A stretch of 64,000 nucleotides of DNA from Promethearchaeota archaeon (GTDB lineage: Archaea > Asgardarchaeota > Lokiarchaeia > Sigyniarchaeales > SOKP01), in the NCBI GenBank assembly GCA_016930515.1, contig JAFGGO010000027.1, positions 21,382 to 85,381 of the forward strand, in the 5' to 3' direction. The notes beneath the pieces are model-generated. The model had not been told where the DNA came from, ran no database searches, and saw only the letters and a program-made list of their open reading frames with translations. Made by a program: the position numbers and the translations under genes. The number at the start of each line of letters is the position of its first letter. The first letter of the stretch is position 1. Below are positions 3,344 through 49,667 of this stretch, in pieces.

Positions 3344-4279
3344 TTGCAAGTTAAAGAAGATATTAGCCTCACTAGAGAAGAAATTGATCAATTAATCAAG
3401 AAAAAATTAATTCTATTAAATGAGATTGATAGAAATCAAGGAAAAGGGTCCGAATATATTCGAATTCTAAGCGAGATCGCATTACTCAAGCTTGAGATTG
3501 AGGAATTCGAAGAATCTGAGAATTATTTTAAGACATGTCTGGCTTTTTTTGAAAAACAGAGCGATAATCTTGGAAAAGCTGCTGTTTTGGGTCTCTTAGG
3601 TGCCCTATTCTATAAGAAGGACCAATTTGAAGAATCTATCAATTATTATCGACAAGGAGATCTATTATACAAGGAACTCCTCCAGTTTAAAGAACAAACA
3701 ACATGCTTAATCGGAATTGGAAGCGCTTATCTGAAATTAAATAAGCTAGACGAAGCAAGCGATATATTTTTTAAATGTAGTGCAATTTGTGCTGACAACC
3801 ACGATGTCTACGGATTATTAGAATGCCTTCAAAATTTAATATTTATCTACGAAAAAGAAGAAAAATGGGATGTTGTCTTTGAATTGTACAAAAAAACCCT
3901 TAAAGCTTTCAAGGAATTAAAAGACCGACAAGGCATGATCGTATCGTATTTTAACTTGGGAATATTAAAAAAAAAAAAAAATTACGAGGAAGCGTTAATC
4001 TATTTCAAAAAAGGAACAAATGTGGCAATTGATTCAAACTATTCTGAATTAATAGTAAAAGGGCTAAGTTATATAGCCGAATGCTTGTTCTATACGGGTA
4101 AAATAAGAGATGCAACGAATCAATTGATAAAAAGCCTCCATTTAGCTGAAGAAATTAAAGCAAAAAACGCGATTATACAAATCTCAGTGTTGTTAAAATC
4201 GTTTGGGCTTAGTGAAACTGATATCCAAGAAAGCCTTAAAAAATATCGCGAAGATAGGAAAATAACGAAAAATAAATAA
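3344..4279 (+). CDS. Tetratricopeptide-repeat protein
   Basis: Repeated ~40-aa helical units (LGxLGAxFY...YxEA/S..Y). Confidence 0.8.
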   Translation: MQVKEDISLTREEIDQLIKKKLILLNEIDRNQGKGSEYIRILSEIALLKLEIEEFEESENYFKTCLAFFEKQSDNLGKAAVLGLLGALFYKKDQFEESINYYRQGDLLYKELLQFKEQTTCLIGIGSAYLKLNKLDEASDIFFKCSAICADNHDVYGLLECLQNLIFIYEKEEKWDVVFELYKKTLKAFKELKDRQGMIVSYFNLGILKKKKNYEEALIYFKKGTNVAIDSNYSELIVKGLSYIAECLFYTGKIRDATNQLIKSLHLAEEIKAKNAIIQISVLLKSFGLSETDIQESLKKYREDRKITKNK

Positions 4280-4326
4280 TTAAATTGACTTTACTTTAAT
4301 AGTAAATTATTTATTCTCTATTAAAG

Positions 4327-5745
4327 ATGAAAAATTGTCCATTTTGTAATCAAGAAGTGAGAGAAACCGATAAGTTTTGCATTCATTGCAAGAAACCACT
4401 TTTAACATTCATCTCGCAGAAGGAGGGTTCCTTAAACAAGAGCTTGCAACCATATAATTACTTACAGTACGAGGACGAGGATCAAGACGAGGAGTTCAAT
4501 ATTTCTGAAATCGATAGCGATGTCATTGACAGAAAAATAAGAAAAATAAGTGCCTCTTTAGAAGCAGCGCAAGCTTCGGGGATTACAACTGGGGATTTAT
4601 TGCTAAAAAAGGCTTCTTTATACTATCAAAAAAGAGATCTCGGAACTTCTGCAAAAATTGTTGAATTAGCTCTTAACTCTTTCGATTCCGAAAACGATCT
4701 GATGAATGTTGCTATATGCCATAACGAACTAGGTTTAATTCAAGAGGATATAGGCATTTACGATGAAGCTATCTATCAGTTTGATAGAGCGATTGACATT
4801 CTTAAAAATCTCGGAGATTCTCAAAAATTAATAAGAACATATAATAACATCGCAAATATTTACCATTTAATTAAAGATTTTGAGCATTCTTACGAATATT
4901 ATAAAAAAGCCATTGACCTAGCTCGAAAAGAAAATCTCGTCATGGAAGAAGTCAAATCGTCCTCAAATTTGGTTGATGTATTATTCTCCTTTAAAAATTA
5001 CGATTCGATCGAAAAAATTCTCGATAGAAACGCGTTTATTTTTAATCAAATCGGAGATATTAATGGTACAATTATTACTTTGATAAAATACGGGAAATTA
5101 AATTTCCACAAAGGACCAAATTACTTCGATAAAGCGCTTAAATTATTTACCGATGCCTTAGATCTTGTTGAAAAGATTAGCGAAAGAATTTCAATCTATT
5201 CAAAATCACAATTGGAATGGGAGTGCTATTTATACATTGGAAAAGTGTATTATAAGAGAAAAAATTACGAAAAAGCCGAAATTAATATTTTAAGAAGCCT
5301 TGAATCACTACGGACCCATGAAATTGAAGATAGTCTTAACCAAGCGTTAGTTTTGAAACTAATAGGTAAGATTTATTCTGCAAAAAATAATTTTATTAAA
5401 GCAGTGGAATATTTCGATTTATCTTCGATAACTTACGAAAAATTCGGGGCATTATATGACAAGGCGTTGGTTAAGATATTGGCTGCTCAAGATATCATGG
5501 AAAGCAACAATGACGATTCAAAAGCCTTAAATTATTATGAAGATGCATTAAATATATTTCAAGAGCAAGGATATGATAAAGAAGTGGCAGATACCTCTCA
5601 AACTTTAGGGGATATTTATATAAAGCTTAATTTGGAAGGAATAGCTCTTGAATATTTTGAAAAAGCTAAAGATACTTACCAAATTTTAAAAGATAAGTTT
5701 AATTCGCAACTCGTTAAGGAAAAAATACAATCCTTGAAAACTTAA
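4327..5745 (+). CDS. Zinc-ribbon plus TPR-repeat protein
   Basis: N-terminal CPFC...FCIHC ribbon followed by many TPR units (NELGLI, NNIANIY, YIGKVY, TLGDIY). Confidence 0.85.
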   Translation: MKNCPFCNQEVRETDKFCIHCKKPLLTFISQKEGSLNKSLQPYNYLQYEDEDQDEEFNISEIDSDVIDRKIRKISASLEAAQASGITTGDLLLKKASLYYQKRDLGTSAKIVELALNSFDSENDLMNVAICHNELGLIQEDIGIYDEAIYQFDRAIDILKNLGDSQKLIRTYNNIANIYHLIKDFEHSYEYYKKAIDLARKENLVMEEVKSSSNLVDVLFSFKNYDSIEKILDRNAFIFNQIGDINGTIITLIKYGKLNFHKGPNYFDKALKLFTDALDLVEKISERISIYSKSQLEWECYLYIGKVYYKRKNYEKAEINILRSLESLRTHEIEDSLNQALVLKLIGKIYSAKNNFIKAVEYFDLSSITYEKFGALYDKALVKILAAQDIMESNNDDSKALNYYEDALNIFQEQGYDKEVADTSQTLGDIYIKLNLEGIALEYFEKAKDTYQILKDKFNSQLVKEKIQSLKT

Positions 5746-39906: not shown

Positions 39907-40842
39907 ATGAAAGTAGAAAAATCTAGTCAAGATCTCGAAAACGAGGTAATATACGCAGGTCTTTGCATTCATTGTGGAAGCTGCAACGCTTTTTGCCCCC
40001 ACATGGACTTTAATCAGACAACTGGAGAAGCATTTGTCGTCGATGAATGCGCTGAGACCGTGGGTTTGTGCTATAATTCCTGTCCGAGGAGTTTTCTTCC
40101 CATTAAAGAAATCGAACAAAAACTCTTTGGTGAAAGCAGGATTGATTTAGGAGTGGGCGTTTACAAGGATATTATCCAAGTAAAAGCGAAAAACGATGAC
40201 ATTCTACACGCTCTCGTCGAAGCCGCCTTTAAAGAAGGCGTTATCGAGTGCTTGGTTTTAGGGGAGCCAAACGGAGCAAAACCTGCCGTATCTTTTCCAA
40301 AAATTGTCTATAATGCCAAGGACGCCAAGAAACTCATCCCGCAAAAGACTATGGACAACGCTGGTCCTTTAGTAACTGGTATTGGTCAAGCTTACAAGGA
40401 ATACAAGAAAAATATTGGAATTATCGCCAATCCGTGTCACCTACAAGGCTTAGCAAAAATTCTCGTTTCTGATTTTAACACGGGTGCCGAAAAGACATCC
40501 TTAAAGATCGCTTTTGCGTGTTCTTCTGGTGGCATGGCGGGATGCAAGTACTGCACGGACTTTTCGGGCGAATTTTCGGACATCTCGTATTCCCCTTGGG
40601 GCGCTCCCAAGCCAGAAGCCCTCTTGATCATCAGAACCGCCGTTGGTCAAAAAGTAGTGGACGCTGCGAAAAAAATGAAACTCATCGAAGTAACCAACCC
40701 GAATCCGGACTTGTCCGAGATGAAAAAGTTCCTCAACAAGAAGCGCAAGAAGAACTTCAAGACGCTCTTAGGAAAGTCGCTCGTAAGAGCCAAATACTTG
40801 GATTTCAGCTACGACGAGCTCAAGGACATCCTCGAAGAATAA
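39907..40842 (+). CDS. Coenzyme F420 hydrogenase/dehydrogenase beta-subunit (FrhB/FdhB) family protein
   Basis: N-terminal ferredoxin CIHCGSCNAFCP...C..CP, ANPCH, C..GCKYCTDFSGEFSDIS, IIRT..G. Confidence 0.85.
   Translation: MKVEKSSQDLENEVIYAGLCIHCGSCNAFCPHMDFNQTTGEAFVVDECAETVGLCYNSCPRSFLPIKEIEQKLFGESRIDLGVGVYKDIIQVKAKNDDILHALVEAAFKEGVIECLVLGEPNGAKPAVSFPKIVYNAKDAKKLIPQKTMDNAGPLVTGIGQAYKEYKKNIGIIANPCHLQGLAKILVSDFNTGAEKTSLKIAFACSSGGMAGCKYCTDFSGEFSDISYSPWGAPKPEALLIIRTAVGQKVVDAAKKMKLIEVTNPNPDLSEMKKFLNKKRKKNFKTLLGKSLVRAKYLDFSYDELKDILEE
40789..40842 (+). repeat. Direct repeat copy 1 (current 3' end of the frhB-like gene)
   Basis: gccaaatacttggatttcagctacgacgagctcaaggacatcctcgaagaataa; 46/54 identical to 44558-44611 with a 20-bp exact core at 40795-40814. 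Confidence 0.92.
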
Positions 40843-40873
40843 TTCTTTAATTTTCTTTCTTTTAACTTTTTTT
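40843..40873 (+). terminator. T-rich archaeal terminator-like tract after the frhB-like gene
   Basis: ttctttaattttctttcttttaactttttttc directly after the stop; a similar tract follows the second repeat copy (44612-44640). Confidence 0.5.
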
Positions 40874-41101
40874 CACAATCTCCATCAATTTAAAATGAAA
40901 TTTTTAAAGTGTAGATTTTAATGACAATTTCCTAATTTTTGTCGACTCCGGGTTCCTAAATAAATCAACGATTCCTCAGCAATTTTTGGCCCTCTCGCAA
41001 AATTTAAATAGTATTTTATAACATATAATACCAAGGATTCAAATTAGGCTTCGATTTTTCCTTTAAACATGGAAAAAAATAGTCATCGTGCGAGACAACT
41101 C

Positions 41102-42619
41102 ATGAGAATTTTAATAGACACGAACATCCTCATTGCGAGAGAGAACCATCACATAATTGAACAAGAACTTCAAACGCTTTTAAGGGTCGTTCAAGAATTA
41201 AAACACGAAACGCTCGTCCATCCAAAATCTATTGAAGATGTTAGAAGAGATCCAAACGAAATCCGAAGAAACATTACCCTCTCAAAACTCAACACTTATC
41301 AAATTTTAGAACACGCTCCAAGACCGTCCACAGATCCAAGCTATATCGAGAAAATAGGAAATCCAAAAAATATCAACGACGAAATAGACGATTCCTTATT
41401 ATTTGCTGTCCACAAGAACGCCGTTAATTTTCTCATCACGGAAGATCTTGGCATTCAGAAGAAAGCAAGGAAGCTTAACATCTCTGATAGGGTTCTGAAA
41501 ATCGTTGAGGCATTAGACCTTTTCAAGAGAGATATCCCCAGGGCGATCAAATTACCTCCTTCACTACAAGGTACTACAATGGCTAATTTAGACATCGAAG
41601 ATTCCATATTCGAATCTCTTCGAGAAGATTATCCGGATTTCAATATATGGTACACAGATAAAGCAAGAGAAGGAAGAAATTGTTGGATATATCGCAGGAA
41701 CGACGGATCCTTAGGTGCTGTTTTAATTTATAAAATGGAAGACGAAGCAAACGAAAACGCCAGACCTCCATTAGAAAAGAAAAGGCGCCTCAAAATCGCA
41801 ACTATGAAGGTCACCTATGTTGGTTACAAAATCGGCGAGTTATTGCTAAAATTGTCTTTTGAATACGCCATTAAAAACAATATTTCAGAAATATATTTAA
41901 CGCATTTTACCCGAAAAGACGATTATTTAGTTGATTTAATCGAGCAATATGGGTTTAACAAAGTATCAACCATTCATCGAGATTGGACGGAACAACCCGA
42001 AGATGTTTATATTAAAAAGATTTTTATTGAGAAAAAAGACATTCGCGATCTTACACCGTTAGATATCTCGAAGAATTTTTATCCTAATTTTTACGATGGC
42101 ATAAAAATTAACAAATTTATCGTTCCAATTCAACCAGAGTATTTTAGACTTCTATTTACTGATTTTCCCATAAGACAAACAACGATAAGCGAGTTTGCTG
42201 GAGATTTTATCATAGAAGGAAATACCATTAAGAAAGCATATTTAAGCCATTCTGCATCGAAAAAAATGAATCCAGGTGATATTCTTTTGTTTTATCGGTC
42301 TGGAGATTTTAAAGGCGTATTATCTCTAGGAGTAATTGAAAATGTGGAATACGATATGCAAGATCCAAATGAAATTTTTTCGATAGTTGGAAAGCGCACC
42401 GTTTATTCGTTCGCTGAAATTGAAAAAATTTCCCAAGAAAAAACAACGGTAATTATTTTTTCCCATCACTTCCATTTTAAAACTATTGTGGAATATGACA
42501 AACTATTAAAAGAAAAAATCCTTACTGGTCCATCTCAATCAATAACAGAGATCGACCAAGAAAAATATCTAAAAATAAAAAAATTAGGTGGTATCGACGA
42601 ACGTTTTGCTTTCGATTAA
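41102..42619 (+). CDS. PIN-GNAT-PUA/EVE-like three-domain fusion
   Basis: PIN: ILIDTNILI...SIED...NDEIDD...LITED; GNAT: LKIATMKV..VGYKIGELLL...IYLT...LIEQYGF; C-terminal IKKAYLS...MNPGDILLFYRS; MRILID start at 41102 preferred to 41069. Confidence 0.85.
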   Translation: MRILIDTNILIARENHHIIEQELQTLLRVVQELKHETLVHPKSIEDVRRDPNEIRRNITLSKLNTYQILEHAPRPSTDPSYIEKIGNPKNINDEIDDSLLFAVHKNAVNFLITEDLGIQKKARKLNISDRVLKIVEALDLFKRDIPRAIKLPPSLQGTTMANLDIEDSIFESLREDYPDFNIWYTDKAREGRNCWIYRRNDGSLGAVLIYKMEDEANENARPPLEKKRRLKIATMKVTYVGYKIGELLLKLSFEYAIKNNISEIYLTHFTRKDDYLVDLIEQYGFNKVSTIHRDWTEQPEDVYIKKIFIEKKDIRDLTPLDISKNFYPNFYDGIKINKFIVPIQPEYFRLLFTDFPIRQTTISEFAGDFIIEGNTIKKAYLSHSASKKMNPGDILLFYRSGDFKGVLSLGVIENVEYDMQDPNEIFSIVGKRTVYSFAEIEKISQEKTTVIIFSHHFHFKTIVEYDKLLKEKILTGPSQSITEIDQEKYLKIKKLGGIDERFAFD

Positions 42620-43028
42620 ACCCAAATATGTCGAAGAGATAAAAAAAGGAAATAAAAAATACGAGTTTCGAAAGTCCCTCTGTTCTGAAGATAATTTGAG
42701 CAAGCTCAATAAGATTTTCATTTATAGTAGCGCCCCAGTAAAAAAAATCGTTGCAAGATTTGTCGTCCAAGAAATATTGAGAGATCATCCAAGAAAGTTA
42801 TGGGATAAATGCAAGGAAAACTCAGGAATCGAAGAAATGGCCTTTTTTAACTATTTTCAGAATAAAATGAGTGGTTTGGCCATTAAAATCTCTGAATTAA
42901 AATTCTTTTCTATCCCACTCAATCCAAACGATTACATTCCCAATTTTAGTCCCCCACAATCCTTTTGTTACATAGACGATATCGAGCAGACAAAAAAAAT
43001 CACCGATTTTTCGAAAAGAAAGGATTAA
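42588..43028 (+). CDS. ASCH/PUA-like domain protein
   Basis: LLSIKPKYVEEI..G.KKYEFRK (GxKxxExR), IYSSAPVKKIV, PPQSFCY; overlaps the upstream gene. Confidence 0.88.
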   Translation: MVSTNVLLSIKPKYVEEIKKGNKKYEFRKSLCSEDNLSKLNKIFIYSSAPVKKIVARFVVQEILRDHPRKLWDKCKENSGIEEMAFFNYFQNKMSGLAIKISELKFFSIPLNPNDYIPNFSPPQSFCYIDDIEQTKKITDFSKRKD

Positions 43029-43089
43029 TTATCTACTCATAGAAAACATCCTTCTCTCTATTTGTCAATTTCTCAATCTTTCAAGATTA

Positions 43090-43260
43090 AAGAAAATTGT
43101 ATTGAATGGGGATGGAGGAAAATGTGTTAAGCATGGGAAAAAAGTAGACCTCCAAAACGATCACGGTATTCCAATTAGTAAGGGCGGAAATAACAGGTCT
43201 GAAAACATTCCGCTCCTATACTCTGATTGTAATCTCAAAAAAAATGATAGAATACAATAG
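43090..43260 (+). pseudogene. Degenerate HNH endonuclease fragment
   Basis: KKIVLNGDGGKCVKHGKKVDLQNDHGIPISKGGNNRSENIPLLYSDCNLKKNDRIQ*; matches RDGGKCxxCG...DHIIPxSKGGxN...NxQLLCxxCNxxK with two Zn Cys changed to H and Y; not in the ORF track. Confidence 0.8.
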
Positions 43261-43346
43261 AGACTTATAATGGAATATTTTTATTTTAGAAATAGATGTT
43301 GCAATATTACTTCCAACTAAATTAGATTTAAAAATATTAAATAGAT

Positions 43347-44510
43347 ATGGTTTATATATTATTTTACTTGGAATCATTGATAAAAATGAATTTTCTCTCT
43401 CTTGAAAAAAAAGATGCAGAGGCTTTATGGGATAATTTATGGGATCATCAAAAAGATGCTCTTGAAAATATGAATAAATATATAACTTCAGATGGTAAAC
43501 ACCCGCTTAAGATATCAGATACTTGTCTGGATGTAAAGGACGATGCATTCAAATTAAAAGCAAATGGTAAAAATTTTAAAGTGAATATTAAATTCGATAT
43601 TAATAAATATAAATTAACTTGTACTGAATTGGATGAATATTATGATATTTCTTCAGGATTGGTTATTGAAGAAACATTTACAAAATATTTTAACAGAACG
43701 CAATCATTTAGAATTCTCCCAGAGAATACAGATGTAATATATTTCAGGGGCCAATTTTATAGCCCTAAATTGAAGATAGGGAAGTATTTTGATCCAAATA
43801 CCTATTATCTTGGACAATGTTTTGAAGTTGATAACGAAATAGGCAATTGTAAATCTGAAAAAGGGAATACTGCATATTACAAGGAAAATGATGATAAATG
43901 GGATTCAAATTCTCTCTTTGGCATCATTTTTAATAGAAGTACATCAGATACAAAGTTAGAGTTATTCGGATCACCAAATATTATTGTATGCGATGATATG
44001 AATTATGAAATTGCTGATTTCATCTTATGCGAAACCGAACCAAAAAATGAACGAGTAATATTCGTGCACGCTAAAGCCTACCGCGGAACAAAAAATAGTA
44101 CTTGTGCGACAGGTCAATTGCATGAAGTTTGTGCACAAGCTATAAAGAATTTAGGATATTTAACGAGATTTAACAATAATGAACCAAAGAATTTGAATTT
44201 ATGGGATGGATCCTGGGAATCAAACAAAAAAACAGGCAAGCGAATGGTAAAAAAACGAATCCATAGTAGAGACGCTACTGATGATGCAGAAAAAACTTGG
44301 AATAAAATCAAAAATGTCATTAATAATCCTCAATCAAACAAGGAAGTATGGTTATTTTTAGGAAATATCATCTCAAAACAATATTTTGAAAGTCAATTAA
44401 AAAATGAAGATCCACAAGCAAATGTTATTCAAGCAGCATATTTAGTCCAAGCGACTATTTCAGATATTTCATCAGTTGGGGCAAAACCACGGATATTTTG
44501 TAAAGAGTGA
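43347..44510 (+). CDS. Putative PD-(D/E)xK-like nuclease domain of an SF2 helicase-nuclease, helicase core missing
   Basis: N-terminal Q-motif-like LWDHQKDAL with no Walker A or DExH after it; C-terminal IVCDDMNYEIADF...IFVHAKA...LHEVCAQAIKNL. Confidence 0.55.
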   Translation: MVYILFYLESLIKMNFLSLEKKDAEALWDNLWDHQKDALENMNKYITSDGKHPLKISDTCLDVKDDAFKLKANGKNFKVNIKFDINKYKLTCTELDEYYDISSGLVIEETFTKYFNRTQSFRILPENTDVIYFRGQFYSPKLKIGKYFDPNTYYLGQCFEVDNEIGNCKSEKGNTAYYKENDDKWDSNSLFGIIFNRSTSDTKLELFGSPNIIVCDDMNYEIADFILCETEPKNERVIFVHAKAYRGTKNSTCATGQLHEVCAQAIKNLGYLTRFNNNEPKNLNLWDGSWESNKKTGKRMVKKRIHSRDATDDAEKTWNKIKNVINNPQSNKEVWLFLGNIISKQYFESQLKNEDPQANVIQAAYLVQATISDISSVGAKPRIFCKE

Positions 44511-44557
44511 TTAATTTAAATCTTTAAATGTATTAAAGCTAATTAAATACTCTAAAA

Positions 44558-44611
44558 GCCAAGTACTTGGATTTCAGCTACGAGGAATTAAAGGACATTC
44601 TTGAGGAATAA
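44558..44611 (+). repeat. Direct repeat copy 2 (orphan 3' end of the frhB-like gene, AKYLDFSYEELKDILEE*)
   Basis: gccaagtacttggatttcagctacgaggaattaaaggacattcttgaggaataa; exact core at 44564-44583. Confidence 0.92.
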
Positions 44612-44851
44612 AATTTTACTTCTTTTCTATTCTTTTTTTATTCAATTCTTTTTCAAAATTCTTGAGTATATTTTCCTTTTTTAATTCTAGATCAAGTGCA
44701 TTATCCCTATAAATTAAAACATAATATAATACTGAAAAAAGTCCCCCTATAGATTTAAAAAGAGTGATAAGTATAATGATCCCAAACCAAATCCAAAATG
44801 AAACATGAATATCAATAAAATCTAATTGATCCTGTAAGGTGAATTATTTTA

Positions 44852-45931
44852 ATGGAACAAGAGAATTTAGAATTATATAGAAAATTGCAGCAACACATGA
44901 ATGAGCAACCCGTAGGTTTTCCTCCTACATCGTCCGGATCTGATATTCGCTTGCTGAAATATTATTTTGATCCTGAAGAGGCTTCTATTGCTCTTGCCTT
45001 AAATTATAAAAATCAATCTTTAAGTCAAATCCACGACTCTTTTAACAAGCAATATCCCGAAAAGGACGATTTAGAGCGAATTCTCCAGAGAATGACGCAA
45101 AAGGGAATTATTAGGTGGAAATTAATTGATGGTTTAAGTCACTACCACATTTTGCCGTTAGTTGTCGGCTTGGACGAATCTCAAAATTACAATCGCTCCT
45201 TAGAATATATTCATTTGATCGTTGAATACATGATGGAAACTAGATTTCCTTTTAAACTTGTTTCGAGTCCTGTTACTCAAATGAGGACGATTCCCGTGGA
45301 AAAAAGCATTGAAGTAGAACATCTGGTTAGTAATTACGACAATATCAACTCGATCGTACAAAATATTCGAGAACCAATCGTATTACTCGATTGTATATGT
45401 CGAAAAACTCAGAACCTGCTAGGAAATAGGTGTAAGCAAACATCTCGCTTGGAAACATGTATGGCTTTTGATAATCTCGCAAAACAATGGCTTCGAAGAG
45501 GTCAAGGAAAATCAATTACCAAACAAGAGGCTCTTGAAGTTTTGAAGCAGAACCAAGAAGATGGATTGGTTTTACAACCTTCGAATTCAAAAGATCCAGA
45601 ATTTATCTGTTCTTGTTGCGGTTGTTGTTGTGGAATATTAACAGCTCAAAAATACTTGCCAAATCCCGCCAAATTCTGGGCAAGTAATTACTCCGTTGAA
45701 CTAGACGAATCCTCATGTAAGGTTTGTAAAACTTGCTTGGATTTTTGCCAGTTTGATGCCTTAAAATTTCTCGAGAAAAAGAATAAGCTAAAAATAAACT
45801 TGAAACGATGCGTTGGGTGCGGAAATTGCGTTGTATCCTGTCCAAATAATGCCCTTCGATTGATTCAAAAAGCCGAATCCTCATATACTCCAAAGGATAC
45901 AGAAGAGCTTTATGAATTAGCCAAACAATGA
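44852..45931 (+). CDS. 4Fe-4S dicluster-binding protein with N-terminal wHTH-like region
   Basis: PVGFP...LL...F.PEEA, CICR, ETC, ICSCCGCCCG, CKVCKTCLDFC and CVGCGNCVVSCP. Confidence 0.85.
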   Translation: MEQENLELYRKLQQHMNEQPVGFPPTSSGSDIRLLKYYFDPEEASIALALNYKNQSLSQIHDSFNKQYPEKDDLERILQRMTQKGIIRWKLIDGLSHYHILPLVVGLDESQNYNRSLEYIHLIVEYMMETRFPFKLVSSPVTQMRTIPVEKSIEVEHLVSNYDNINSIVQNIREPIVLLDCICRKTQNLLGNRCKQTSRLETCMAFDNLAKQWLRRGQGKSITKQEALEVLKQNQEDGLVLQPSNSKDPEFICSCCGCCCGILTAQKYLPNPAKFWASNYSVELDESSCKVCKTCLDFCQFDALKFLEKKNKLKINLKRCVGCGNCVVSCPNNALRLIQKAESSYTPKDTEELYELAKQ

Positions 45932-47699: not shown

Positions 47700-49667
47700 A
47701 TAAATTACGCCGACTTTTTTCCATACGATAGTTTTCGAGAGTCTCAAGAGAATATCATAAAAACGATCGAAAAATCAGCGAGAGAACGAAATAATATCAT
47801 GTTAGTTGCACCCAATGGTACTGGAAAGACGGTTATTGCTTTGAGCGCCCTTCTTCCTGTTGCTTACGAGAAAAATCTAAGAATTATTTACATGTGTAGG
47901 ACTCACTCCCAGAACGCTAGGGTGATAAAAGAACTCAATAAAATTTCTGATGTCTTATCAAATAACAACAAGAACATCAAGATCAGGGGGATATCGATAC
48001 GAGGAAGAAACGAGATGTGCCTTCACGAGACTCTTCTATCCCTGAAATTAAGCCCGCGGGAGTCAATGTCGCTCTGCAAGGACCTGCGAAATAATCGAAA
48101 TTGTCCTTATTTCTTGAATTTATTAAAAAAGAAGAATGAATTAAACAATCCTGTTCTCATCTCTCCTGAAACCTTTGACAAGCCCATAGAAGCCGAAGAA
48201 CTCATTGATCTATGTCGCGACAAGAAATTATGTCCTTATTTTTTAAGCAAATTCTTGCTTGAGGAAATGAAGGTCGTGATATGCAATTATCAATGGATAT
48301 TCAATCCAGACATTCGTGAAACTTTCATGAAATTCATTGGCAGCGAAATCGAAAATTGTCTTCTCATTATCGACGAATGTCATAACATCATTGATGTTGC
48401 AACGGATGTGAACTCCCAGAGGATATCGCCCTATTCGCTAAAAACGTGCCTAAAGGACTTGGAAATGTATCAAGCACCCATTAAAATGCAGGGGCTCGTA
48501 AATATCCTCCTTGATCACCTCAATAACAAGAAAAGATCCATTAAAACGGAAGAAAAGGCCATAAAACCGCATTTATTCCTCGAGCTCTTGTACAAAAAGT
48601 TAGGATACACTGACTTAAACGGGTTTAAAAATTTAATACACGAAATCCACGATTATAGCGTCTCTATTCACGAAGAAAAGATCGCAAACGGAGAAGTATC
48701 TCGGGATTTCGTGGGCGGTTTGGCCGATTTTTGGTTAAAATGGATTGATGTCTACGAGAAGGAAAACTTTTTCTTCTGCTATAGCACGAAAGAGGTTAAC
48801 GAAAAACGATCCATTGCCTTAGAAATCGTGGCTCTAGACCCAAGAGAAATTGCAACTCCTCTCTTAAAAAATTGTAACGCATCCTTAAACTTATCTGGAA
48901 CAGTAAATCCGTATGTTTTTAATAACTTAATGGGTTTGAATAGTAGTGGAAAGAGTTATAAAGCTATTATTGCCGATACTCCATTTAAAAGAAAGAACAT
49001 CAAGGCGCTTATCGTGGAAGGCGTTGACACGAGAAGAGAAAATAGGACCTCGAACATGTATAAGAAATATATCGAGAAGATCTCTGAGGTAATTTATAGC
49101 ACCCCCGCAAATATCGGGGTATTTTGCGCTTCGTATAAGATTTTAAAGGGACTCATATCGAATGGGATCGAATTGGCAGCACGGAATAATCGAAAGAAAA
49201 TATTTATAGAAGAAATAGGCCAATCCGCTTCGGAAAATAGCTTTATGCTTGAAGATTTCAAGTCGATGGCTTCGAATGGGGGCGCCGTTCTTCTTGGCGT
49301 GTGTGGGGGAAGAAATTCCGAAGGAGAAGATTATCCAGGAGATTACATGAATTCCGTGATCATTGCAGGCTTTCCTTATCACTTGCCAACGCCGAGAATC
49401 GAAGCAAAGATCAAATATTACGATAAGGTATTCGATAAACAGGGATGGAACTTCGCATATCTTTATCCCGCAATTCAGAGAGCAAACCAAGCTTCTGGTC
49501 GTCCGATAAGAAAAGTTACCGACAAGGGGGCACTGGTATTCATGGATTCTCGCTTTAAATCCAAGCTTAATTGGATATCAAGTTGGGTAAAAAAAGAAAT
49601 GGAAATCGTTCCAGACAAGAAAAACGCCATTACGCAGAGTCTTTACCCGTTTTGGAACGGACAATAA
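47700..49667 (+). CDS. xpd: XPD/Rad3-family Fe-S DNA helicase
   Basis: APNGTGKT, four Fe-S Cys (MCL..LCK..CPY..LCPY), IIDECHN, LSGT, GRNSEGEDY, QASGRPIR; Q-motif region FFPYDSFRESQ lies in frame upstream of the tracked ATG 47799. Confidence 0.9.
   Translation: MNYADFFPYDSFRESQENIIKTIEKSARERNNIMLVAPNGTGKTVIALSALLPVAYEKNLRIIYMCRTHSQNARVIKELNKISDVLSNNNKNIKIRGISIRGRNEMCLHETLLSLKLSPRESMSLCKDLRNNRNCPYFLNLLKKKNELNNPVLISPETFDKPIEAEELIDLCRDKKLCPYFLSKFLLEEMKVVICNYQWIFNPDIRETFMKFIGSEIENCLLIIDECHNIIDVATDVNSQRISPYSLKTCLKDLEMYQAPIKMQGLVNILLDHLNNKKRSIKTEEKAIKPHLFLELLYKKLGYTDLNGFKNLIHEIHDYSVSIHEEKIANGEVSRDFVGGLADFWLKWIDVYEKENFFFCYSTKEVNEKRSIALEIVALDPREIATPLLKNCNASLNLSGTVNPYVFNNLMGLNSSGKSYKAIIADTPFKRKNIKALIVEGVDTRRENRTSNMYKKYIEKISEVIYSTPANIGVFCASYKILKGLISNGIELAARNNRKKIFIEEIGQSASENSFMLEDFKSMASNGGAVLLGVCGGRNSEGEDYPGDYMNSVIIAGFPYHLPTPRIEAKIKYYDKVFDKQGWNFAYLYPAIQRANQASGRPIRKVTDKGALVFMDSRFKSKLNWISSWVKKEMEIVPDKKNAITQSLYPFWNGQ

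Follow-up and report, generated by a model that had tools for sequence, protein, structure and literature searches.

What does a pair of overlapping genes that brings together PIN, GNAT-like, PUA-like and ASCH domains do in the genome of an Asgard archaeon? The pair, genes A and B, lies in a 64,000-nucleotide stretch of contig JAFGGO010000027.1 (Promethearchaeota archaeon, assembly GCA_016930515.1), which we call the window. An earlier note, made from the letters alone, had placed two overlapping genes at 41102-43028; these coordinates proved exact, and both genes are genuine and undamaged. The pair is a canonical, intact new member of the (PIN)-GNAT-EVE + ASCH family, catalogued by PADLOC as PDC-M11, to which the Asgard copy adds nothing structurally new. 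As we argue below, it is probably a mobile conflict module of the toxin-antidote type, serving most likely in defence against viruses or in the stabilisation of mobile elements.

The open reading frame of A extends from 41069 to 42619 (the features are collected in Table 1). The ATG at 41102 (MRILIDTN...) is backed as its start by the homologues, all of which align from residue 1, and the database gene call P0003, of 505 amino acids, has the same start; an alternative in-frame ATG at 41069 would add 11 residues that have no homologue support. The 32-nucleotide overlap of A with B suggests that their translation is coupled. Upstream of A, TTTAAATA at 41003-41010, about 95 nucleotides before the start, is a candidate archaeal TATA box.

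PADLOC assigned A to the PDC-M11A model PDLC04422 (E = 5.1e-158, residues 12-514 of the 516-residue open reading frame against profile positions 1-499 of 501) and B to the PDC-M11B model PDLC04424 (E = 1e-45), and both hidden Markov models (HMMs) are matched end to end. Because the E values are so low, the family match is not due to chance. The order of the domains in one chain, PIN, then GNAT-like, then PUA-like, is that required by the PDC-M11 or (PIN)-GNAT-EVE + ASCH architecture. In Pfam, the EVE, PIN_3, GNAT and ASCH signals of the pair are all sub-threshold, while in NCBIfam A has no match and B only a far sub-threshold one. The fusion of PIN, GNAT and PUA/EVE beside a stand-alone ASCH gene, as the note had read it, is borne out.

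The A family is large, occurs in archaea, bacteria, plasmids and viruses, and is found repeatedly inside restriction-modification (RM) operons. It comprises 1858 cluster representatives at E ≤ 1e-3, of which 586 remain at E ≤ 1e-30; most are about 500 residues long, and some PIN-less forms have about 350. A search of species-representative genomes with a 16-sequence alignment of A gave 383 loci, and the details were taken from the best 80, which have only 43-66% identity; the 383 loci are spread over many archaeal and bacterial phyla. Among these best 80, the archaeal hosts include Asgard archaea, Methanosarcinales, Methanomicrobiales, Thermoplasmatales, Halobacteria and DPANN lineages, and several bacterial phyla are present as well. 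The pairing is obligate: a B gene stands beside A in all 77 of the 77 loci with room downstream, the two genes overlapping, as they usually do, or abutting, and the other neighbours vary between loci. Within the Asgard archaea, full-length A was found in about 8 of the 201 genomes sampled (~4%), and 4 of the 40 genomes of the window's own family have an A match.

Two variations in the partner gene were observed. In a Woesearchaeota locus (L101:11509-11955) and a Thermoplasmatales locus (L107:11504-11950), the ASCH partner is more divergent (34-37% identical) and runs convergently to A on the other strand. In two metagenome-assembled genomes, one from ANME-3 (Candidatus Methanovorans; L096:2348-4048) and one from Methanolobus (L104:11505-13202), the PIN-GNAT-EVE gene is followed by one for a 565-residue ASCH-GNAT-EVE fusion, the GNAT domain of which passes the Pfam threshold. 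These were considered as the HsdS-ASCH fusions of Bell et al. and rejected as such, given their ASCH-GNAT-EVE composition.

The novelty expected in the earlier note was overrated, as the system was described in 2013, 2017 and 2020 and is catalogued as PDC-M11. The architecture and its ASCH partner were described by Iyer et al. (2013), as cited in Bell et al. (2020; PMC7641849) and Matelska et al. (2017; PMC5499597). The PIN_15 and PIN_17 groups of Matelska et al. cover the PIN-GNAT-EVE architecture, and Bell, Wolf and Koonin state that none of these modules was characterised and propose toxin-antitoxin roles for them. PADLOC PDC systems are, according to the literature, unpublished or unvalidated candidates, and PDC-M11 appears in the searchable literature as an annotation only. 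Compared with this family, nothing essential is different in the window: the pair shares with the family the three-domain A, the small ASCH partner, tight coupling, a sporadic distribution and the link to type I RM and further defence genes. The window copy differs in that it is without the optional AAA_17 ATPase and an adjacent RM system, and in its location: the genome belongs to the Promethearchaeota, and the insert that holds the pair has no integrase and lies at the 3' end of a gene like frhB.

Residues of the two proteins

A was modelled with AlphaFold2 from an alignment of 79 diverse homologues, from which the column counts were also taken; the model has a predicted local distance difference test (pLDDT) score of 95.7 and shows three domains. 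In the PIN part, the acidic residues D6 (79/79), E14 (74/79), D96 (78/79) and D115 (78/79) are all present in A, in agreement with the note; they were assigned to the active site by motif and not by structural superposition. The Pfam PIN_3 score of A is 17.8 bits, below the cut-off of 27. Among the Foldseek matches listed for A there is no PIN structure, and the profile search gave a weak match to 3ix7_A (TTHA0540, an 'uncharacterized protein'; E = 0.69).

The middle domain was matched by Foldseek with the GNAT acetyltransferases PaiA, Naa50/60 and NatC, with a probability of 1.0 to PaiA, Naa60, NatC and others. The family profile of A matches Naa50 at E = 4.8e-7, in an alignment that spans motif A. 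In this alignment, K231 (78/79) and T267 (72/79) of the A family fall at the positions of Tyr73 and His112, which we take to be the catalytic residues of human Naa50. The variant motif A loop formed by G241, K243, G245 and E246 is almost invariant (G241 77/79, G245 78/79, E246 78/79). Because the loop is so strongly conserved, it would be expected to form a functional, though possibly altered, ligand site.

GNAT-fold toxins with a small co-translated antitoxin of the ribbon-helix-helix (RHH)/DUF1778 type are known from TacAT, AtaRT and KacAT. The present pair likewise combines a GNAT-fold protein with a small co-translated partner; however, the partner here is an ASCH protein, the GNAT domain shares its chain with PIN and PUA-like domains, and motif A is non-canonical. 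Membership among the TacT-type GNAT toxins was therefore rejected, since the partner is ASCH and not RHH/DUF1778 and the likeness is one of generic fold (Foldseek rank 22).

The C-terminal domain of A has a sub-threshold Pfam EVE match (E = 4e-4), and Foldseek aligned it with ZmASCH (TMt 0.8) and also with the EVE domain of THYN1; its profile-profile match to B is weak. At the place that would correspond, by strand order, to the ASCH octapeptide, A has G373-N-T-I-K-K-A-Y380, without the ASCH K, E and R. Because these residues are missing, the modelled PUA-like domain looks more like a reader than an enzyme.

The model of B (pLDDT 92.6) and its profile both point to ZmASCH of Zymomonas mobilis (PDB 5GUQ/5GUS) as the closest solved relative. 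The profile matches 5GUQ at E = 4e-25, whereas other solved ASCH proteins have E > 0.006, and ZmASCH ranks first in Foldseek with a TM score of about 0.8; by profile similarity, ZmASCH is a member of the partner family. Counted over 51 sequences, the octapeptide G-x-K-x-x-E-x-R (GKER) of B is highly conserved, with G21 in 47/51 and K23, E26 and R28 each in 51/51. Tyr47, Lys53 and Ser128 of ZmASCH have their counterparts in Y46 (51/51), K52 (41/51) and S125 (49/51), and the invariant residues of the cleft are S9, K23, E26, R28, Y46, W72, Y89 and P123. The PDB lists ZmASCH under the molecule name 'helix-turn-helix domain-containing protein', whereas in B the ASCH domain stands alone. In alpha-proteobacteria, partner proteins with a HigA/HipB-like helix-turn-helix (HTH) domain fused to ASCH do occur, and in the HTH-ASCH partner of a Rhizobium plasmid, the HTH of which resembles HigA/HipB antitoxins, the ASCH part matches ZmASCH equally well.

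YqfB-type N4-acetylcytidine (ac4C) amidohydrolases share the ASCH fold with B, and hydrolysis of an N4-acylated cytosine amide would fit an eraser role. However, B has GKER and not GK[T/S]R, with Glu26 (51/51) and not the Thr24 of that motif; it is 146 residues long as against about 103; and YqfB is found only at Foldseek rank 28-29, with E about 0.02. A YqfB-type assignment of B was thus rejected.

For ZmASCH itself, two activities have been reported, both studied outside the context of a GNAT partner. It is a Mg-dependent endonuclease on single-stranded RNA in vitro (Kim et al. 2017, PMC5615036). According to a 2026 preprint, 19 of the 19 ASCH proteins tested, ZmASCH included, strip ac4C from E. 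coli tRNA in vitro, and the Lys and Glu of the octapeptide are essential for this removal; in the same work, ZmASCH did not hydrolyse free ac4C, and its over-expression left cellular ac4C unlowered. An earlier study, in the form in which the preprint cites it, found GKER proteins inactive. The residue-level reading of both proteins defines mutants that can be tested, in the K-E-R motif of B, the reader-type PUA-like domain of A and its conserved non-canonical motif A.

Mobility and genomic company of the pair

The module travels, in this Asgard archaeon, as a small insert without an integrase. The 3.77-kb insert (40843-44611), in which no integrase was found, holds the A-B pair and is flanked by an imperfect 92-nucleotide direct repeat. 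Its G+C content is 0.29-0.32, as against 0.42 in the frhB-like gene upstream, which is a core gene present in 37 of the 40 genomes of the family. In 15 relatives the frhB-like gene is followed by a gene for a Ras-like GTPase, an unknown gene and XPD. G206, the closest relative (frhB 92% identical), has no insert, and the Fer4 gene that in the window stands beyond the right repeat begins there 165 nucleotides after frhB; in a congener (G168) the module lies on another, short contig while the frhB site is free of an insert. Over the 57-nucleotide coding part of the repeat, the right copy differs from the frhB end of the closest relative at 6 positions and the left copy at 9. Because the right copy is slightly closer, the sequences would fit an insertion that brought with it a new 3' end for frhB.

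The note had called the pair the only undamaged cargo of the island. This largely stands, since the rest of the insert holds a 52-residue HNH stub and a PDC-S71 copy that is without profile positions 1-240. The stub matches no more than the final 43 positions of a type II restriction endonuclease model and is probably a remnant. PDC-S71 was not found in the 150 other Asgard genomes sampled.

The company that the pair keeps elsewhere was analysed in the 64 loci that have 3 kb or more of flanking sequence, with neighbour HMMs built from recurrent clusters. The recurrent neighbours are hsdM, hsdS, hsdR, MmeI-like methylase-nucleases, DUF1016/YhcG nucleases, Schlafen/AlbA_2 proteins and Fic. Of the 64 loci, 19 carry type I RM genes, which are mostly co-directional and within 3 kb, and in some relatives the pair lies co-directionally inside hsdM - hsdS/hsdR operons. 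Of 359 genes within 3 kb, 30 are RM-like (8-9%), as against 3 of 449 beyond (0.7%); these distance-binned HMM counts were used in place of near/far PADLOC tallies. The association reproduces that of Bell et al. 2020 (PMC7641849). Adjacency of the homologues to defence genes, the measurement of which the note had proposed as a check, is thus strong across the relatives.

Plasmid-borne homologues of A amount to 33 records, and virus-borne copies occur in both archaea and bacteria. In the Methanothermobacter prophage psiM100 (AF301375.1, positions 3501-5346; L121), ORFD is a full-length PDC-M11A protein that is 42% identical to A, and ORF5, just downstream, is an ASCH gene of the PDC-M11B type; the 'inserted fragment IFa' of the record takes in nearly all of ORFD and ends inside it. 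Next to cI, lambdoid phages of E. coli have a pair without the PIN domain. In Escherichia phage PhiR47_2 (PV340567.1), the PIN-less pair is annotated as GevT toxin and GevA antitoxin and matched as PDC-M11A/B by PADLOC. B is 35% identical to GevA (E = 1e-29), and residues 147-502 of A are 29% identical to GevT, which differs in having no PIN domain and in being prophage cargo beside cI.

What the pair may do

The reading as a mobile toxin-antidote-type conflict module draws on the PDC-M11 match, the mobile insert, the RM association of the relatives and the phage pair annotated as toxin and antitoxin, and on these grounds the conflict or defence role proposed in the earlier note was sustained. 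To these we add the remnants of other defence genes in the same insert, the antitoxin-like HigA/HipB-type HTH on some ASCH partners, the patchy Asgard spread, the virus-borne homologues and the agreement of prior descriptions.

In the mechanism that we favour, A would be the effector. Its PUA-like domain, without the ASCH octapeptide, would dock the protein on nucleic acid, the probable target being modified RNA, tRNA for example, and the PIN nuclease and the GNAT-like domain would then damage or mark the docked target. B, which would be translated in coupling with A and is equipped with an intact nucleic-acid cleft and K23, E26 and R28, would counter A at the same substrate, where it would either take the mark off again or keep the site occupied. 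An infection, or the disappearance of the module, might tip the balance and put an end to the counteraction of A by B. Since the cleft of B and its K-E-R motif are invariant, we favour such antagonism at the substrate over simple sequestration.

Several observations weigh against this reading. No RM system adjoins the window copy of the pair, and the PADLOC tally of 204 model families near the module as against 25 far from it is inflated by redundant RM models. In the searchable literature we found no experiment on any member of the PDC-M11 family; the designation as toxin and antitoxin comes from a single GenBank annotation, and no paper behind the names GevT and GevA was found in the literature. 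A is without the canonical GNAT motif A (R/Q-x-x-G-x-G/A), which binds the pyrophosphate of acetyl-CoA, and has V240-G-Y-K243-I-G245 in its place; across the family the pattern is x-G-x-[K/R]-x-G-E, in which 73/79 have K/R at position 4 and only 32/79 have R/Q at position 1. Matelska et al. 2017 (PMC5499597) describe the domain as degenerate, with motif A missing, and predict a loss of activity. Finally, by analogy with the RNase report on ZmASCH, B itself could be an effector.

A stricter form of the antagonism, which we consider clearly less probable, is that of a writer and an eraser, with a logic like that of DarT/DarG. The variant GNAT domain would acylate the exocyclic amine of an RNA (or DNA) base to give an ac4C-like mark, the PUA-like domain would read the mark, PIN would cut as executioner, and the ASCH partner would be an enzymatic antidote that hydrolyses the acyl group. 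The invariant K23, E26 and R28 of the GKER octapeptide, the in vitro removal of ac4C from tRNA by all ASCH proteins tested in the 2026 preprint with its need for K and E, the position of ZmASCH as the nearest relative of B, and the strongly conserved motif A loop, which points to a working cofactor or ligand site, are all in favour. On the other hand, motif A is non-canonical and predicted by Matelska et al. to be inactive, B is not of the YqfB type, and no acetylated product is known. The failure of ZmASCH on free ac4C and on cellular levels and the inactivity of GKER proteins in the earlier study also stand against it. So does the occupation, by K231 and T267, of the positions of the presumed Naa50 catalytic residues. 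If true, it would mean an immune module based on the acetylation of nucleic acids, with ZmASCH as the first structurally solved antidote of the family.

Less probable again is a DNA-directed accessory of RM systems, in which the PUA-like and ASCH domains would read modified DNA bases and the module would mark or discriminate DNA together with type I RM enzymes; the idea of DNA-base acetylation goes back to Iyer 2013. The relatives that lie co-directionally between hsdM and hsdS/hsdR would fit this, as would the DNA complexes in which the ASCH domain of TRIP4 and the EVE domain of THYN1 have been solved. By Bell et al. (PMC7641849), HTH-ASCH and HsdS-ASCH fusions are taken to suggest that the ASCH partner binds modified DNA. 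However, PIN domains are typically RNases, 45 of the 64 flanked loci (about 70%), the window among them, have no type I RM gene nearby, and the phage copies occupy moron positions without RM.

That the pair is a purely selfish addiction module or a passenger in decay, and plays no part in the defence of this archaeon, we regard as improbable. The insert is integrase-less, its other genes are broken, and toxin-antitoxin modules often merely stabilise mobile DNA; yet A and B are full length with all conserved residues intact, and adjacency to defence genes is strong across the relatives. A housekeeping pair for RNA modification or turnover, for which one could cite the PUA, ASCH and GNAT domains of translation-related enzymes and the JGI label 'rRNA-processing protein FCF1' of homologues, is very improbable and was rejected, as full-length copies are rare in the Asgard genomes sampled, the site is empty in the closest relative, the neighbourhood is variable, viruses and plasmids carry the pair, and no conserved synteny with translation genes was seen in the neighbourhoods of the relatives.

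Features in and around the insert

Table 1. Positions of the genes, domains and insert features in the window
Feature	Coordinates	Strand	Remarks
Gene A	41102..42619	+	505 aa; PIN / GNAT-like / PUA-like (EVE/ASCH-fold) fusion; PDC-M11A
PIN domain	41102..41530	+	about aa 1-143; Pfam PIN_3 sub-threshold; secondary structure from model
GNAT-like domain	41564..42049	+	about aa 155-316; variant motif A V240-G-Y-K-I-G245-E246
C-terminal PUA-like domain	42107..42616	+	about aa 336-505; ASCH/EVE fold
Gene B	42588..43028	+	146 aa, GTG start, TAA stop; ASCH protein; PDC-M11B
A/B overlap	42588..42619	+	32 nt, stop region of A over start of B; read from sequence
Left direct repeat D1	40784..40875	+	end of frhB-like gene (last 19 codons and the stop) with a further 33 nt; 75% identity to right copy
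HNH endonuclease stub	43102..43260	+	52 aa; Pfam HNH E 1e-8
PDC-S71 copy, 5'-truncated	43347..44510	+	profile positions 241/277-589 of 589 only; single-gene defence candidate
Right direct repeat	44553..44644	+	displaced, synonymously diverged copy of frhB 3' end; right border of insert

Beyond the right border, the Fer4-domain gene at 44852-45931 is variable: it is found only in the window genome and in G206, whereas in the 15 other relatives frhB leads directly to the GTPase gene. Further downstream, an XPD-type helicase gene (47799-49667) matches the DinG model of type IV CRISPR in PADLOC (E = 3e-82). Its synteny is kept in all relatives examined, and it looks like a housekeeping gene that matches a defence model.

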